Of a DNA stretch of 64,000 nucleotides, positions 55,354 to 62,665 are shown piece after piece. The stretch comes from an uncultured cyanobacterium (GTDB lineage Bacteria; Cyanobacteriota; Cyanobacteriia; Cyanobacteriales; Nostocaceae), in contig OY970166.1 in the NCBI GenBank assembly GCA_963706595.1, positions 2,016,001 to 2,080,000 of the forward strand, in the 5' to 3' direction. Under the pieces are notes generated by a model, which worked only from the letters and a program-made list of their open reading frames with translations, ran no database searches and was not told the origin of the DNA. A program made the position numbers and the translations under genes. Each line of letters begins with the position of its first letter. Positions within the stretch are counted from its first letter, which is position 1.

Positions 55354-57003
55354 ATGCTGAATTTAGTTTCAGCTAGCTGGGAAAGTGTTAGCACTCAACC
55401 AGTTAAGCAAAACCGGATTATTGCGGCCATTGACATGGGAACTAATTCCCTGCACATGGTAGTAGTCAAGATTGACCCGACGTTACCATCGTTTCGGATG
55501 ATCGCCAAAGAAAAAGAAACCGTCAGACTGGGTAATCGTGACATCGCCACTGGAGAACTGAAACCAGAAATCATTGACAAGGCGATTACCGCCCTCAGAC
55601 GCTTTCAAGAAGTTGCTAAAACAGCTAATGCAGAAACCATCATTGCTGTCGCCACTAGCGCTGTGCGAGAAGCCCCGAATGGCAGAGATTTTCTGCACAG
55701 AGTAGAATTGGAGTTAGGTTTAAGCGTTGACTTGATTTCAGGTCAAGAAGAAGCCCGACGCATCTACTTAGGTGTACTTTCGGGGATGGAATTTAATAAC
55801 CAACCCCATATCGTCATTGATATTGGCGGTGGTTCTACAGAGTTAATTTTGGGCGATAGTCAAGAAGCCCGCAGTCTCACCAGTACAAAAGTTGGTGCAG
55901 TGAGACTCACCAGCGAGTTTATTACTAACGACCCCATCAGTGATACTGAGTTTCAGTACCTAGAAGCCTACACACGCGGGATGCTGGAACGTTCTGTGGA
56001 AGATGTGCTAGGAAATATCCAGTTGGGGGAATCTCCCCGTTTGGTGGGAACCTCTGGTACGATTGAAACCCTGGCGATGATTCATGCACGGGAAAATTTA
56101 GATACTGTTCCTTCGACTCTCAATGGCTACGAGTTCAGCCTCAAGGACTTGCAGAATTGGGTCTATCGCTTGCGAAAAATGACTTATTCGGAGATTTCTC
56201 ATATCCCCGGTATGCCAGATAAGCGGTCAGAAGTGATCTTGGCTGGGGCTGTGATTTTACAGTCAGCCATGAGTTTGTTAGGTGTGGAATCTGTGACGGT
56301 GTGCGGGCGCGCCCTCCGGGAAGGCGTGATTGTGGATTGGATGTTAGCCCACGGGTTGATTGAAGATCGACTGCGCTATCAAGGTTCAGTGCGTGAACGC
56401 AGTGTGCTGAAACAGGCTGATAAGTATCATATCAATTTAGAACATAGCGATCGCGTGGCTTTATTTGCCTTGAGTTTATTTGACCAAACCCAAGGGAAAT
56501 TACATAACTGGGGAGTCAACGAACGACAAATGTTATGGGCGGCGGCGATATTACATAATTGTGGGCATTATATTAGCCATTCGTCTCACCACAAGCATTC
56601 CTATTATTTAGTTCGCAATAGTGAATTACTTGGCTATACCGAAACCGAGATTGAAATTATTGCTAATTTAGCCCGTTATCACCGTAAATCACAGCCCAAG
56701 AAAAAACACGAAAATTACCGAAACTTGCTGAGTAAACAGCATCGCCAATTGGTTAGTCAATTGAGTGCAGTGTTGAGATTGGCAGTGGCATTAGATCGGC
56801 GACAAATTGGTGCGATCGCCCGCGTAGAATGTGACTACAATCCTGATAGCCAGGAATTTAAAATGTTGATTTTCCCCTCTAAACCTGATGATGACTGTGC
56901 TTTAGAACTTTGGAGTTTAGATTATAAAAAACCAGTGTTTGAAGATGAATTTAAAGTCAAGTTGATGGCTAATTTAAAACAGACTCCTATCACTAGAATA
57001 TAG
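55354..57003 (+). CDS. ppx: Ppx/GppA exopolyphosphatase
   Basis: AAIDMGTNS, ATSAVREAPN, EEAR, DIGGGSTE and LREG motifs plus a C-terminal HD-like domain. Confidence 0.93.
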   Translation: MLNLVSASWESVSTQPVKQNRIIAAIDMGTNSLHMVVVKIDPTLPSFRMIAKEKETVRLGNRDIATGELKPEIIDKAITALRRFQEVAKTANAETIIAVATSAVREAPNGRDFLHRVELELGLSVDLISGQEEARRIYLGVLSGMEFNNQPHIVIDIGGGSTELILGDSQEARSLTSTKVGAVRLTSEFITNDPISDTEFQYLEAYTRGMLERSVEDVLGNIQLGESPRLVGTSGTIETLAMIHARENLDTVPSTLNGYEFSLKDLQNWVYRLRKMTYSEISHIPGMPDKRSEVILAGAVILQSAMSLLGVESVTVCGRALREGVIVDWMLAHGLIEDRLRYQGSVRERSVLKQADKYHINLEHSDRVALFALSLFDQTQGKLHNWGVNERQMLWAAAILHNCGHYISHSSHHKHSYYLVRNSELLGYTETEIEIIANLARYHRKSQPKKKHENYRNLLSKQHRQLVSQLSAVLRLAVALDRRQIGAIARVECDYNPDSQEFKMLIFPSKPDDDCALELWSLDYKKPVFEDEFKVKLMANLKQTPITRI

Positions 57004-57289: not shown

Positions 57290-57772
57290 TCACGGCTGGT
57301 TTAGTCCCTCTAATTTAATTTCTGCTTCATTAATTTGCTTTTGGATTAACCTAAGTCTCGCCTCGGCTATTTGTTTTTGTACTTCTAATAGTTCAGTTTC
57401 TTTATTAATACGATTCATTCTAACTTTATGTGACGTAGTGCGTCCTGGTTGAAAAATTAATCCCATATAAACAGTGAGATTTTTAGCATCAAGAGTATTC
57501 AGTCCCACTGACATATTTAAACCAAAGTCATTCTCTGTATTCACTGGAGTATTGAGAGGATGATCTAGTGGATAGATGTTTGGGACATTAAACTCATTAA
57601 TATTCTCAGCATTATTTTGGTTGGGAGTTTGAAAAACATTATTAAAATTTCCATTGACGGTAGAATCGCTGTTAGTACTTTGTTGTGAAAAAGCAGGTTG
57701 ATTTACCAGTGTTTCGGCGATTAAGAGCTTTAAAATGGCAGTAGGCAATAAAATTGCTAATCTTCGTAACAT
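57290..57772 (-). CDS. hypothetical secreted protein (Asn-rich, amphipathic beta-hairpin, C-terminal coiled coil)
   Basis: Signal peptide ending QPAFS; alternating strands FGLNMSVGLN / LTVYMGLIFQ; heptad tail. Confidence 0.7.
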   Translation of the reverse strand: MLRRLAILLPTAILKLLIAETLVNQPAFSQQSTNSDSTVNGNFNNVFQTPNQNNAENINEFNVPNIYPLDHPLNTPVNTENDFGLNMSVGLNTLDAKNLTVYMGLIFQPGRTTSHKVRMNRINKETELLEVQKQIAEARLRLIQKQINEAEIKLEGLNQP

Positions 57773-57971
57773 GATTTGTTTACATTTACTAGTCTTACAG
57801 ATTTAACTTCAGCTATAACTTTTGTACTTGAATATCAGAGGATAGATCATCAAAATTGTTCTCCCGACCTATATTAAGGAAAGTAGATTGAATTTTTTGT
57901 AAATTAGATTACCGATATAAAAGTCCTAAATCATTTATGAACTTCTTCCCTGAATTTTACACCTTGCTACA

Positions 57972-58229
57972 TATAGGAATCTGATTTGATTATTGAAAAA
58001 ATCTAAGTATATGTAGTGGCGTGACAAGGCTAAAATGTTGCAATAGATTTTTGAGAAAATCGAGATAAATCAATGTTTTCTGCTTTTTACCTAATGCACT
58101 ATTTTAAGCTTGCCACGCTAGTAGGGTGTGTTATGGCTTTAGCCTAACGCACCGTCTTCTGTGGTCTTGGTGTCGTACTCTCCTCGATAACACACCCTAC
58201 TTGTGTTTCATAAATCAAAATCGAATACA
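57972..58229. mobile_element. nested element: MITE containing a REP pair, with an IS630-related MITE (58016-58121) inserted in it
   Basis: Outer ends resemble 11627-11768; the inner 106-bp MITE is flanked by TA at 58014-15 and 58122-23. Confidence 0.85.
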
Positions 58230-58233
58230 TTAT

Positions 58234-58683
58234 TTAGTCAACATAAATAATTAAGGTATTGGCGATATTACCATTACCTGTATTTTCCTGGGTAACTCGT
58301 GTATTGATTCCAATTAATTCCAGCTTAAATGCAGATGTAATTGGAGTATAACTACCCATAATATCTATAGTATTTTTACCTTTCTTTAAAACAGGAGAAA
58401 GATTAATCTGAGTGCTATTGTTTGTAAATTTAGCAATTATTATACCATTAAGTTTAATGTTTCCTGTTAACAGGTCAGTGTGTCGAGAACCCCTAATTTT
58501 CAGTAAATACTTTTCTTTAAATTCATCAATACTTAAATTAATAATTGTTGTTTGTGTCGTTTCTTTTAGTTGAGTTGGATTAGCAAAAGCCAAATATGGT
58601 ATTATAATAGACATACTCATTGCTAAAAAACCAGAATAGCAAATCGCAGTTAATATTTGCTGAAAATTCATATTTATTTCCAA
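58234..58683 (-). CDS. hypothetical secreted beta-rich protein
   Basis: Signal peptide ending LAFA; GNIKLNG...INLSPVLKKGKNTIDI beta-sandwich-like pattern. Confidence 0.7.
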   Translation of the reverse strand: MEINMNFQQILTAICYSGFLAMSMSIIIPYLAFANPTQLKETTQTTIINLSIDEFKEKYLLKIRGSRHTDLLTGNIKLNGIIIAKFTNNSTQINLSPVLKKGKNTIDIMGSYTPITSAFKLELIGINTRVTQENTGNGNIANTLIIYVD

Positions 58684-58787
58684 CGATTGTTTTTTATATT
58701 ATATGAGCTAAAAAATAAATGAATTTGTAGGGGTTTAACAGTGGTATGGTAAACCCTTACTAAATAAAAGATTGAATGTACTAATTT

Positions 58788-59162
58788 TTAGGGGTGAAAA
58801 TTTTTTGGTGTTTTGACATTAACGGGAACAACTATGCTACTTTTAACAGTTGGTCCACTCATACCAGTGCTATTACGCCCATTATTTCTAATTTCGTGAC
58901 GAACCTCTTGATGCTGTCTCACACGCCCATTATTACTAGTATTTACTTGTACTGCTGTAGAAGAACTGGTATTTCCTGTACAGGATTTTGGACTGTGCAT
59001 TTCCACATTAGACGTTTGTGTGGCTGGTGTGTTAGACATATTAAGCTGAACGCCAACATGGGACATAACACACTGTGCTACTGCGGGTTTAGTAGCAAAA
59101 GTAGCCACGGTTAAACACATACCAAAAGATAAAAAACCAAGATATAAATCTTTACGTTTCAT
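58788..59162 (-). CDS. hypothetical secreted Ser/Thr/Asn-rich protein
   Basis: GGGGTGA RBS, signal peptide ending PAVA, two mature Cys, repeated VQLN/VQVN/VPVN. Confidence 0.75.
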   Translation of the reverse strand: MKRKDLYLGFLSFGMCLTVATFATKPAVAQCVMSHVGVQLNMSNTPATQTSNVEMHSPKSCTGNTSSSTAVQVNTSNNGRVRQHQEVRHEIRNNGRNSTGMSGPTVKSSIVVPVNVKTPKNFHP

Positions 59163-59185
59163 CTAAATCACCCCATATTTGGACG

Positions 59186-59530
59186 TTAATAACAAGATAC
59201 GGAAACCGTACTACTTTGAGTGCTGTGTCTATTATTTCTGCTAACTTGTGTTGTTTCTTGTTTAACAACACTACCTGATTTTTTACAGGAATTTCTCCAA
59301 AAAATATTGAAATGATCAAGGGGACGATTTCTATTTATATAGCTGCTTCTGGAAGGAACAGTTAGCTTTGTATTTCCAGTGTCTATATAAAAATTTCCGT
59401 GGGAATCTTGATTGATTCTCACACGCCCTGCTTGCATATCTATTTCACTTGCTTGGGTAACAACAGGTAGAAATAAGGTGAAGAAAATTAGAAGGGAGAA
59501 AAATTTGTACATAAGCATGGGAAATCCCAA
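59186..59530 (-). CDS. hypothetical secreted protein
   Basis: Signal peptide ending VTQA; C-terminal Cys pair flanking a polar Q/S/T-rich segment. Confidence 0.7.
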   Translation of the reverse strand: MGFPMLMYKFFSLLIFFTLFLPVVTQASEIDMQAGRVRINQDSHGNFYIDTGNTKLTVPSRSSYINRNRPLDHFNIFWRNSCKKSGSVVKQETTQVSRNNRHSTQSSTVSVSCY

Positions 59531-59544
59531 GTTAAAGAAAAAGT

Positions 59545-59580
59545 TTAGGGTAAAGTTATGTTGTGTCAGCTTTACCCTAA
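59545..59580 (-). terminator. intercistronic stem-loop with U-tract
   Basis: Minus strand TTAGGGTAAAG...CTTTACCCTAA followed by ACTTTTTCTTT. Confidence 0.65.
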
Positions 59581-59641
59581 TAATTTAGCACCCGAAACTC
59601 AATCTAAGTCAAGGAAAACTGCCAATTATTCTGAATGATGA

Positions 59642-59983
59642 TTAATGATTATATCTGCCTCTATCATGGTGATTGTGTTGTTGGTCTCTTTGATGAATTT
59701 GTTGGTTGTTTTGAGAAGCTTTGTTGACACAAAGATTACCATTACCAAAAGTGTCACACTCTTGACCTATAGCTTGACCGTTAGCGCCATTACCACCAGC
59801 GTTTTTATTGACATTTAGATGGTTTTGTGTAGCATTATTAATACTGCGGTTGTGATTGCCAGTGGTAACACTTCTTTGGTTGATAATTTGAGCGTTATCA
59901 ACATGACTAGGCCGAGCATTAGCAGGAGTAGACGCAAGCGCGATCGCACTTAAAGTGAATAGACCGATGATAAACTTATTCAT
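59642..59983 (-). CDS. secreted Asn/Gln-rich protein with two curlin-like repeats
   Basis: Signal peptide ending PANA; repeats NAQIINQRSVTTGNHNRSINNATQN and NGQAIGQECDTFGNGNLCVNKASQN. Confidence 0.75.
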   Translation of the reverse strand: MNKFIIGLFTLSAIALASTPANARPSHVDNAQIINQRSVTTGNHNRSINNATQNHLNVNKNAGGNGANGQAIGQECDTFGNGNLCVNKASQNNQQIHQRDQQHNHHDRGRYNH

Positions 59984-60357: not shown

Positions 60358-61374
60358 ATGCAACTGAAACTCAGTGCATCTAAATTTCCCTTCGCTCCTT
60401 TACTCTTAATCGCCCCTTTTTTCTTCTGGGGAACGGCAATGGTGGCGATGAAAGGAGTCATACCCCACACTACACCCCTATTTATGGCAGGTGTGCGATT
60501 GCTACCAGCTGGGGTGTTAATTTTGATTGCGGCAGTATTGATGGATAAACCCCAGCCAAAGGGTTGGTCAGCATGGCTGTGGATTATTTTATTTGCTTTG
60601 ATAGATGGGGCTTTATTTCAAGGCTTTTTGGCAGAAGGTTTAGTCAGAACTAGTGCTGGTTTAGGGTCGGTGATGATTGACTCTCAACCTTTGGCGGTGG
60701 CTTTGTTGTCGTTGTGGCTCTTTCAAGAACATATTGGTTTGTGGGGATGGCTGGGATTAGGACTGGGAGTCATCGGCATTAGTTTAATTGGTTTGCCCGA
60801 TCAGTTGATTTTGCAGTTGTTTGATGCCAACGTCAATGCAACTGTTGGTAATTGGCAAGATTTGTTTGCTAGTGGTGAATGGTTAATGTTGTTAGCCGCC
60901 CTCTCAATGGCTGCGGGAACAGTGATGATTCGGTTTGTGTGTAGACACGCTGACCCAGTAACCGCTACGGGATGGCACATGATTTTGGGGGGATTGCCGT
61001 TGTGGGGAATTTCATCTGTAACTGAATCTCAGCAGTGGCAGAATCTGGTAACATCTGAATGGATGGCTTTGGGTTATGCTACAGTTTTTGGCAGTGCGAT
61101 CGCCTATGGCTTATTTTTCTACTTTGCTTCTAGCGGTAGCCTCACCAGTCTGAGTTCTCTGACCTTTTTGACTCCCGTCTTTGCCCTATTATTTGGCAAT
61201 CTCTTTCTCTCGGAAGTTCTCAGTCCCTTGCAGTGGGTGGGAGTAGGACTGACTTTAATAAGCATTTATCTGATTAACCAGCGCGATAACTTGGCGGGAC
61301 AAAGTAACGAAGTGAGTGTGGGACAAGAAGTTAAACAGCACTCACGCGCCTTAGAAACCTCGGCTCATAAATAA
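60358..61374 (+). CDS. DMT/EamA family transporter
   Basis: About 10 TM helices; FFWGTA, SQPL and LTPVFA motifs. Confidence 0.9.
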   Translation: MQLKLSASKFPFAPLLLIAPFFFWGTAMVAMKGVIPHTTPLFMAGVRLLPAGVLILIAAVLMDKPQPKGWSAWLWIILFALIDGALFQGFLAEGLVRTSAGLGSVMIDSQPLAVALLSLWLFQEHIGLWGWLGLGLGVIGISLIGLPDQLILQLFDANVNATVGNWQDLFASGEWLMLLAALSMAAGTVMIRFVCRHADPVTATGWHMILGGLPLWGISSVTESQQWQNLVTSEWMALGYATVFGSAIAYGLFFYFASSGSLTSLSSLTFLTPVFALLFGNLFLSEVLSPLQWVGVGLTLISIYLINQRDNLAGQSNEVSVGQEVKQHSRALETSAHK

Positions 61375-61438: not shown

Positions 61439-62665
61439 GTGGAATCGATAACTTCAATGTACCTTCAGGCTGATACTGACAATATGAGGCTATCCCATTC
61501 CTCAATTCTGATTTTTACCTGTTTTACTTGCTTGGGTTTTTACCCACATCGCGCAAGTACGGCAGCATATCATCTAGCATCCCCAGAAATTGCACAAGCA
61601 AGTTCGACCACACCTGTCACCGAGAATGTTCTCAAACTCGGTAGTCAAGGGTCCTATGTTCAAATCATGCAAATTCAATTAAAGGATTTAGGATACTACG
61701 ATAGTGTGACAGATGGAGTATATGGGCAAAATACGCAAAATGCTGTAATTCAGTTTCAGAAATCCCAAAATTTAGAAAGAAGAGATGGAGTTGCTGATCA
61801 TGCAACTAGGCTCAGTCTGCAAACAGCTTGGGCAGAAAAAAATCCCTTTGCGCCCTTTGCTCGCGTCGCCTCCGCATCTACTACTCCAACTGTCCAGAAA
61901 ACTGAGCAGTCACAAGCCAGCGAGCGAGGGTTTATTTGGTGGTCATTATTGGGTCTAGGAATTCTAGGAACTATTGGCGCAGTCCTGTTTGGCATGAAAT
62001 GGTTCAGTCAGGTCAAAGACCAGCCAGAATCTACTCCTACCCAATTGAAAGCTTTGAGTCCTGGTGGCGAAAACTTAGTGCAGCCGCCGTTGCAAGAGTT
62101 GGAAACTGAATCAAAACCGCAGGAAAATCATGTATTGGCCATCAGTCCACAAACAGCAACAGCCTCTATTACCACAACAGTATCACCAGATGAAATGACT
62201 TCGCCTCTGACCAAACTGAATATTGTTGATGAATTGATTCAGGACTTACGCGGTAGCAATCGCCCGAAACGGCGCAGGGCTATTTGGGATTTGGGTCAGC
62301 AAGGTGACTCACGAGCTATTCAGCCCCTAGTAGACTTGATGATTGATGCTGATTCTCAACAACGCAGTTTAATTTTGGCGGCTTTGGCAGAAATTAACTC
62401 GCGCGCACTCACACCCATGAACCGTGCTTTGGCAATTTCATTGCAAGATGAAAGTCCACAAGTGCGACAAAATGCTATCCGTGACCTGACTCGCGTTTAT
62501 GACATGATGATTCAAATGAGCCAGATGTTAGTCCACGCGCTGGAGGACCCGGATGTTAATGTGCAAACTACGGCAAAGTATGCTCTGACTCAGATGAATA
62601 AAATGCGGATTTTACCCGATCAACAGAGTCTACCAAAAGGTCATCACCAAGAGGCAGAACAGTAA
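61439..62665 (+). CDS. peptidoglycan-binding domain protein with TM helix and HEAT repeats
   Basis: LKLGSQG...DGVYGQNTQNAVIQFQ; TM WWSLLGLGILG; HEAT repeats LQDESPQVR and LEDPDVNVQ. Confidence 0.85.
   Translation: MESITSMYLQADTDNMRLSHSSILIFTCFTCLGFYPHRASTAAYHLASPEIAQASSTTPVTENVLKLGSQGSYVQIMQIQLKDLGYYDSVTDGVYGQNTQNAVIQFQKSQNLERRDGVADHATRLSLQTAWAEKNPFAPFARVASASTTPTVQKTEQSQASERGFIWWSLLGLGILGTIGAVLFGMKWFSQVKDQPESTPTQLKALSPGGENLVQPPLQELETESKPQENHVLAISPQTATASITTTVSPDEMTSPLTKLNIVDELIQDLRGSNRPKRRRAIWDLGQQGDSRAIQPLVDLMIDADSQQRSLILAALAEINSRALTPMNRALAISLQDESPQVRQNAIRDLTRVYDMMIQMSQMLVHALEDPDVNVQTTAKYALTQMNKMRILPDQQSLPKGHHQEAEQ

Follow-up and report, generated by a model that had tools for sequence, protein, structure and literature searches.

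A conserved five-gene cluster of small, probably exported proteins in cyanobacteria that may build a curli- or Fap-like fibre

The described systems closest to the locus reported here are curli and Fap, whose subunits CsgA and FapC both consist of imperfect repeats with conserved Asn/Gln residues and a variable outer face (PMC12822426, PMC12392863). The curlin repeat (X6QXGX2NX10; PF07012) spans about 20–23 residues and abuts its neighbours (motif: PMC3521004), and the Fap system, as described in PMC12392863, has three 35–40-residue repeats in a Greek-key fold together with a C39-type peptidase, FapD, and a 12-strand barrel, FapF. Among cyanobacteria, the amyloid operons or new pili in the searched literature are ebfG and the CT pilus only: EbfG1–4 of Synechococcus elongatus PCC 7942 are small secreted proteins encoded in one operon, and three of them are described as forming amyloid and supporting biofilm (10.1101/2022.07.13.498973), and the CT pilin MrpC of Microcystis aeruginosa is described as two long hairpins with a pilin-like gene alongside (PMC12397347). 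Here we describe a five-gene cluster (genes A to E) in a 64,000-nucleotide stretch of DNA from an uncultured cyanobacterium of the Nostocaceae (assembly GCA_963706595.1, contig OY970166.1, positions 2,016,001 to 2,080,000; hereafter the window). The cluster is conserved across cyanobacteria, and we put the probability at roughly two in three that it builds a curli/Fap-like cross-β extracellular fibre with A as its major subunit, a reading that draws on sequence patterns and structure models. Its parts, in window coordinates, are as follows.

59642..59983, minus strand: gene A, 113 aa; export-type leader, two imperfect Q/N repeats of about 30 residues, basic His/Arg tail
59810..59899, minus strand: repeat 1 of A, residues 29–58; strand, GxxN arc, strand
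59696..59785, minus strand: repeat 2 of A, residues 67–96, 38 residues past repeat 1; Cys76 and Cys85 flank the arc
59545..59580, minus strand: stem-loop followed by a U-rich run, 3' of gene A; folding z −2.69
59186..59518, minus strand: gene B, 110 aa from ATG, or 114 aa from TTG at 59530; leader, short β-rich N-terminal part, variable basic linker, Cys-closed polar C-terminal segment
58788..59162, minus strand: gene C, 124 aa; leader, invariant Cys pair, conserved Gln at 33–34-residue spacing
58234..58671, minus strand: gene D, 145 aa from ATG, or 149 aa from TTG at 58683; leader and β-sandwich
57290..57772, minus strand: gene E, 160 aa; leader, one A-like N-terminal segment, amphipathic β-hairpin (residues 83–108), coiled coil (about residues 115–157)

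As an earlier note on this DNA had claimed, five co-oriented minus-strand open reading frames (113, 114, 124, 149 and 160 aa) lie between ppx and an EamA/DMT transporter gene; for B and D, the ATG starts are likelier than the TTG starts. The N/Q/S/T richness claimed there also holds, at 32–39% for A–E against a genome mean of 22% (3501 open reading frames, of which 0.1–2.0% are equally high), as do the Cys pairs in the second and third proteins, which are invariant in B homologues and in C homologues; A from the window carries a Cys pair as well. The GC content of the cluster is 34% vs 41% for the genome, and no paralogue of A–E was found in the 5.57-Mb genome to which the window belongs.

Profiles of A, C, D and E were run against 61 related genomes, with B examined at the loci. 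The A profile matched 22 genomes and the C profile 21, all within the 22 A genomes (19/61 with the C query alone); D was found in 19 genomes, 16 with A and three, including one weak match, without it, and each of the 10 genomes with E also has A. Synteny of homologues in other genomes had been named beforehand as one test that could refute the proposed fibre system, and the order A(n)-B-C, followed by D and/or E if present, was observed in 19/19 C-anchored loci from 18 other genomes, with A cut off by the contig end in one. In an even phylum-wide sample, A and C share the same 5/151 genomes, and the system is therefore patchy; within the genus of the window, the cluster occurs in 5/11 genomes. 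It was recorded in Fischerella, Calothrix, Rivularia, Leptolyngbya, Dolichospermum, Raphidiopsis and Rippkaea, and plasmid pP880101 of Rippkaea orientalis PCC 8801 carries a complete A-A-A-B-C-D cassette with three identical A copies. A is the tandemly multiplied gene of the cluster, with up to seven copies per locus and ten A matches in one genome. The nearest named C homologues are hypothetical proteins in Anabaena, Nodularia and Anabaenopsis records, and the names of the cluster homologues are in general hypothetical or automatic labels. Taken together, the five-gene cluster is real and conserved across cyanobacteria, with A-B-C as the core and D and E as optional members.

It might be argued that the locus is a loose island, its secreted proteins unrelated and without a product in common, since D and E are each found without the rest and the D–E gap in the window is 461 nt. 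That gap, however, exceeds the median of 147 nt over 38 loci because it contains one or more dispersed repeat elements, and the fixed order in C-anchored loci, the median B–C gap of 23 nt (37 loci) and the joint presence or absence of A and C make such an island very improbable. The five genes are better read as making one product.

The evidence for the nature of that product comes mainly from A. Mature A (residues 24–113) consists of two units with the consensus Q-x3-Q-x5-G-x-G-N-x7-Q-x3-Q, joined by a variable linker (three units in a few Leptolyngbya-type members). Over 60 aligned A proteins from 18 sequence clusters, the repeats match only in register, with an identity of 0.53 at shift 0 and 0.06–0.14 at shifts 1–4, and covariation lies on the diagonal from residue i to i+38 (corrected mutual information 0.20 vs 0.03 or less elsewhere). 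Specifically, the face formed by alternate positions is 73% identical between repeats (566/780), whereas the other face is 29% identical (242/840); the conserved face is free of proline and has 0.8% charged residues vs 16.5% on the other, and this split is seen in 60/60 proteins and in all 18 sequence clusters. Conserved-face identity is 0.73 within a protein vs 0.35 between proteins, and this twofold excess indicates that a change in the ladder hits both repeats together; lineages that exchange a ladder Gln for Thr or Ile do so in both units. Additionally, codons for identical residues are the same in 57% of cases vs 48% expected, with synonymous sites near saturation, which argues that selection, not recent duplication, keeps the repeats matched. 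As a sequence pattern, this is the signature expected of parallel in-register β-arches.

In the AlphaFold2 model of the A monomer, four long strands appear at low confidence, and the top structure matches, none of them significant, are the FapC and HET-s fibrils in Foldseek and the CsgA fibril in VIA. When four copies were modelled together, the score was 0.67, compared with 0.01 for the best of three controls, and passed a mark that is reached by 20/30 solved pairs and 1/23 single chains. The runs agree in at least 94% of contacts, with a partner predicted local distance difference test (pLDDT) of at least 80. In this model, residues 39–75 of one copy lie on residues 1–38 of the next and the best pairs are offset by 38, such that repeat 2 of one A stacks on repeat 1 of the next A, head to tail. 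The pLDDT of A rises from 57.6 alone to 80–83 in the stack, the two values coming from two different programs. The four-copy model and the sequence signal are not independent, because one alignment underlies both. A is thus predicted to be a two-rung β-solenoid that stacks head to tail.

The same strands and repeats could serve other architectures. One is a tubular pilus of antiparallel β-hairpins, like the Microcystis CT pilus or a gas-vesicle wall, with A as the pilin and C as a pilin-like protein: A is predicted with four long strands, a within-repeat antidiagonal signal is present if weak (0.054), and the CT pilin, as described in PMC12397347, is two long hairpins beside a pilin-like gene. 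The covariation of residue i with i+38 and the parallel register of the stacked model speak for the opposite arrangement, however, and A, all-β in the model, lacks the helix-turn-helix of MrpC, just as the cluster lacks its glycosyltransferase and methyltransferase (O-GlcNAc transferase and FkbM); we regard a tubular pilus as improbable. Distinct from this, A might form soluble small β-solenoids or short oligomers that act as adhesins, ice-binding proteins or desiccation protectants and make no long fibres. Tandem A paralogues do vary on the outer face, and many habitats in the record titles are mats, soils and cold waters. Yet A has two rungs and no capping element, its outer face lacks a regular Thr array (Thr 10% outside, 14% inside), and the gain in pLDDT upon stacking, albeit between programs, is more easily reconciled with a polymer, so that soluble forms seem quite unlikely. 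A head-to-tail fibre of A remains our preferred reading.

How does such a fibre compare with the known ones? As in curli, the subunit is a small Sec-type protein of imperfect repeats with a strand-arc-strand layout and a Gly..Asn arc, Gln/Asn residues are conserved on one face and the outer face is variable, a head-to-tail solenoid is predicted here, and the subunit gene comes first with small accessory genes after it; the CsgA fibril is the top VIA match of A, though a non-significant one (Z 2.5, root-mean-square deviation 5.7, 48 aligned). Unlike CsgA, which has five abutting repeats of 22–23 residues, A has linker-joined repeats of about 30 residues each, two or sometimes three in number, with an arc-to-arc spacing of 38–60 residues and strands of 12–14 residues, and the cluster has no linked CsgG and gains diversity through gene copies rather than repeat number. 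The curlin-like repeats claimed for the first protein thus hold in style and fail as a family assignment, since PF07012 was matched by 0/33 A proteins and by nothing in the window's genome (the E. coli control was positive), and two QxGxxN cores occur in 2/60 A proteins. Profiles of A–E against the six E. coli Csg proteins gave 6.1 bits at best (D on CsgC; hhalign probability 2%), and no CsgC, CsgE or CsgF homologue was found in the cluster by profile or Pfam. The likeness to Fap lies in long imperfect repeats, variable linkers, an Asn/Gln network and a single operon, with the FapC fibril as the top, again non-significant, Foldseek match (E 2.8). Different from Fap, A has two simple arches and the cluster has neither a peptidase nor a large barrel: no gene in it exceeds about 280 aa, none has a peptidase or porin match (the whole genome was not searched for FapF), and a pattern built from the Fap motif quoted in PMC12392863, G-x-x-N-x-a-G-n-q-q-N, matched 0/60 A proteins. 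Parallel in-register stacking with conserved Asn/Gln, as in curli and Fap, is indicated by the repeat pattern of A and predicted by the four-copy model, and because the repeat layout of A matches that reported for CsgA and FapC, we count it as support for a fibre. The cluster appears to work like curli or Fap while being, by sequence, neither.

The cyanobacterial systems also differ from this one. EbfG shares with it the form of a cyanobacterial operon of small secreted proteins, but is set apart, by its own description, through double-glycine leaders and a short hotspot motif, compared with the Sec-type leaders of A–E and the two-repeat ladder of A. The CT pilus, according to PMC12397347, is likewise cyanobacteria-only, patchy, and a β-rich secreted filament with a pilin-like neighbour, but it is an antiparallel tube with C-terminal helices and O-glycosylation genes, and it was not matched in PDB sequence or structure searches with A, C, D or E. 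None of the five proteins reaches a family cut-off in Pfam or NCBIfam, in agreement with the absence of a recognised enzyme motif noted earlier; no meaningful match to the proteins or their alignments was obtained in Pfam, NCBIfam or PHROGs, and the PDB sequence search gave nothing significant for A, C, D and E. Hence the characterised, unrelated family that could have explained the proteins away did not turn up in these searches. Searches over the main texts of open papers brought up no description of the cluster, most subscription journals lying outside that coverage, and the five-gene system is apparently undescribed.

Leaders were scored by a simple script (hydrophobic 10-mer, lipobox, twin-arginine) over 77 loci after six duplicates had been dropped. 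A hydrophobic 10-mer is present in 117/121 A, 37/37 B, 53/55 C, 47/48 D and 62/66 E homologues, and the alignments have leaders of a basic-hydrophobic-AxA type; the signal-peptide-like N-termini seen on all five proteins thus recur in nearly all of their homologues, and A–E are likely exported. Export by the Tat or lipoprotein route was set aside, with a lipobox in 2/327 homologues and a twin-arginine motif in none. For the outer membrane, the expectation of a fibre system lacking a csgG homologue is borne out for the cluster and not for the genome, which has a CsgG-family gene 3.3 Mb away (G000:C1:5338279-5338875; L102:1327-2376). This stand-alone gene, the sole one among 11 genomes of the genus, adjoins CRISPR-like repeats and an uncharacterised gene. 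It does not track with the cluster, as CsgG is present in 3/22 A genomes vs 8/39 others; CsgG was ruled out as the pore for the cluster by its absence from 19/22 A genomes, and E as an obligatory pore by its absence from 12/22. The window's genome has a secretin gene, two-step secretion in Synechocystis is described as independent of type IVa pili (10.1101/2021.10.08.463751), and signal-peptide reporters are described as reaching the medium in cyanobacteria (10.1101/2021.10.08.463751; PMC13297417). Since no pore-like gene of the cluster is universal, our best guess is that outer-membrane crossing most likely uses a general route.

The main alternative arises at this step, namely that A polymerises in the same way but within the envelope, as a periplasmic scaffold or as a coat of the akinete, hormogonium or sheath. 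The leaders predict crossing of the inner membrane only, and there is no universal pore; the basic tails of A and B might attach to polymers of the wall or sheath, and D shows weak sugar-binding-domain matches in 8/36 members. On the other hand, the cluster also occurs in non-Nostocales genomes and on the plasmid of a unicellular strain, it is patchy within a single genus, and the reporters mentioned above do reach the medium. We consider an envelope location unlikely and favour an extracellular fibre.

The roles of the other four proteins are less defined. D is modelled as a confident β-sandwich (pLDDT 87), as the earlier note had supposed; its structure matches are generic (immunoglobulin, fibronectin-III and glycosidase accessory domains, Z up to 6.1) and not significant, it is weakly galactose-binding- or immunoglobulin-like, and CsgC/CsgH are not among the matches listed, which excludes nothing. 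E has the amphipathic hairpin and coiled coil claimed for the fifth protein, with aliphatic residues on one face of the hairpin, Gly/Asn/Ser/Thr on the other, and a heptad helix following. Its N-terminus bears a weak likeness to one A repeat (E-value 0.0015, probability 16%). In ESM Atlas, the best score of A, 0.77, is uninformative; E resembles a cluster of cyanobacterial hypothetical proteins (0.95) and two unnamed phage clusters (0.93). These scores for E are no more than a lead, and E was not found in the viral contigs or phage genomes searched. E may be an anchor or a small oligomeric barrel, B would be a core accessory protein, with no B–C homology detected, and C is likely a minor subunit or nucleator, a role that rests on gene order and pattern.

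Several points weigh against a fibre. Modelled as a single chain, A reaches a pLDDT of 57.6 and a predicted template modelling score of 0.35, a poor model for which neither Foldseek (best E 2.8) nor VIA (best Z 2.5) gives a significant match. The mark passed by the four-copy score of 0.67 was calibrated with two copies and other alignments, and the pass may reflect likeness to the solved CsgA/FapC fibrils. The inward/outward parity behind the 73% and 29% identities was picked after viewing the table, and the 60 proteins are related. Profile comparison detected no likeness between A and C, and the repeat signal of C is weak (0.22 at lag 33–34; median 0.11), which is why its role is argued from context. 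The alignments and profiles were built partly from the same genomes that were later counted. No pore is tied to the cluster, D also belongs to another cassette, and E occurs without any A–D profile match in 22/64 loci. Nevertheless, the in-register repeats, the four-copy stack, the co-occurrence of A and C and the tandem expansion of A together support a fibre, as do the syntenic homologues and the lack of a characterised family.

We propose that the subunits would cross the inner membrane unfolded via Sec, and that A would polymerise head to tail outside the cell into a two-sheet cross-β filament with two β-arch rungs per subunit. C may seed or cap the fibre, B may assist its assembly, D may bind glycan or act as a chaperone, and E, where present, may use its A-like segment, hairpin and coiled coil to anchor the fibre. 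An excess of the major subunit could come from the stem-loop 3' of A together with the extra A copies, and the fibre may function in sheath, matrix, aggregation or adhesion. A bolder extension, which we regard as doubtful, is that the cluster represents a third bacterial amyloid-fibre system, which evolved independently and is restricted to cyanobacteria, with minimal two-rung subunits tuned by copy number, fibres that mix subunits from up to seven or more paralogues, and export without CsgG or FapF; where E is present, the fibre might be held or passed by a new outer-membrane barrel, to which each subunit contributes one β-hairpin on a coiled-coil stalk.

The terminator-like hairpin noted after the first gene is present as a hairpin of modest stability (−13.6 kcal/mol, z −2.69; 5/200 shuffles as good), whereas a terminator scan made no call at it; 13/34 A–B gaps of relatives have a folding z below −2. 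It is possibly a partial terminator or mRNA stabiliser that would raise A over B–E. A promoter scan found 10 sites vs 13.6 expected, and an upstream motif search gave nothing convincing beyond an AC-rich 7-mer in 15/42 upstream regions. The cassette has a divergent XRE helix-turn-helix gene on one side and a convergent PIN-like gene on the other in many other genomes (L021, L022, L030, L057–L059, L062, L064, L070, L092, L098, L105 and L112, the last with the PIN-like domain fused to a longer C-terminal region). The XRE gene was rejected as a dedicated regulator: it adjoins A in 19 other loci but occurs in 29/61 relatives, many without the cluster. Neither neighbour was found in the window's genome, in the case of XRE with the query used.

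D and E have occurrences of their own. The D-family β-sandwich gene also follows two leader-bearing alanine-rich helical-repeat proteins, without A, B or C, in an unannotated second secreted cassette (L103:3942-6026, L104:4606-6413, L108:4287-6049). A scan for E with one genome per species gave 64 loci, all with cyanobacterial titles (24 ABCDE, 13 ACDE, 22 E alone and 5 other combinations); among the matches listed, an E-alone locus is in some cases split or accompanied by a divergent C-like gene judged by eye, and 30 relatives of E were found among 1.84 billion representatives. E persists alone in Chamaesiphon records (L080–L095), and at two loci of Pseudanabaena (L077, L078) its transcription runs away from A-C-D; E therefore may have its own function. 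On plasmid pP880101 (L115, L116), a leader-bearing protein of 358 aa, rich in Q/N, and a caspase-domain gene come after the cassette, and in one variant (L101:6351-7795), a three-repeat Phe/Gln-rich A, followed by C, precedes an unrelated leader-bearing protein of 137 aa, which stands in place of B, D and E. The surroundings of the cluster in the window are as follows.

55354-57003: ppx, flanking the cluster on one side
60358-61374: EamA/DMT transporter gene, flanking it on the other side
57970..58215, no strand assigned: dispersed genomic repeat element(s) in the D–E gap, outside the system; 212 blastn hits in the genome
57004-57060: further high-copy dispersed repeat; the two gaps give 177 (this one) and 212 blastn hits
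58100-58200: stable hairpin inside the dispersed-repeat region of the D–E gap
61439-62665: protein with peptidoglycan-binding domain, membrane segment and HEAT repeats, beside the DMT gene and conserved in the genus

Mats, crusts and blooms depend on cyanobacterial matrix, for which the cluster offers named, testable genes. If the fibre reading is true, programmed amyloid assembly would have a further, non-homologous solution, materials work would gain a very small building block of two rungs, and the cluster would be a natural substrate for learning how Sec-exported proteins cross the cyanobacterial outer membrane.

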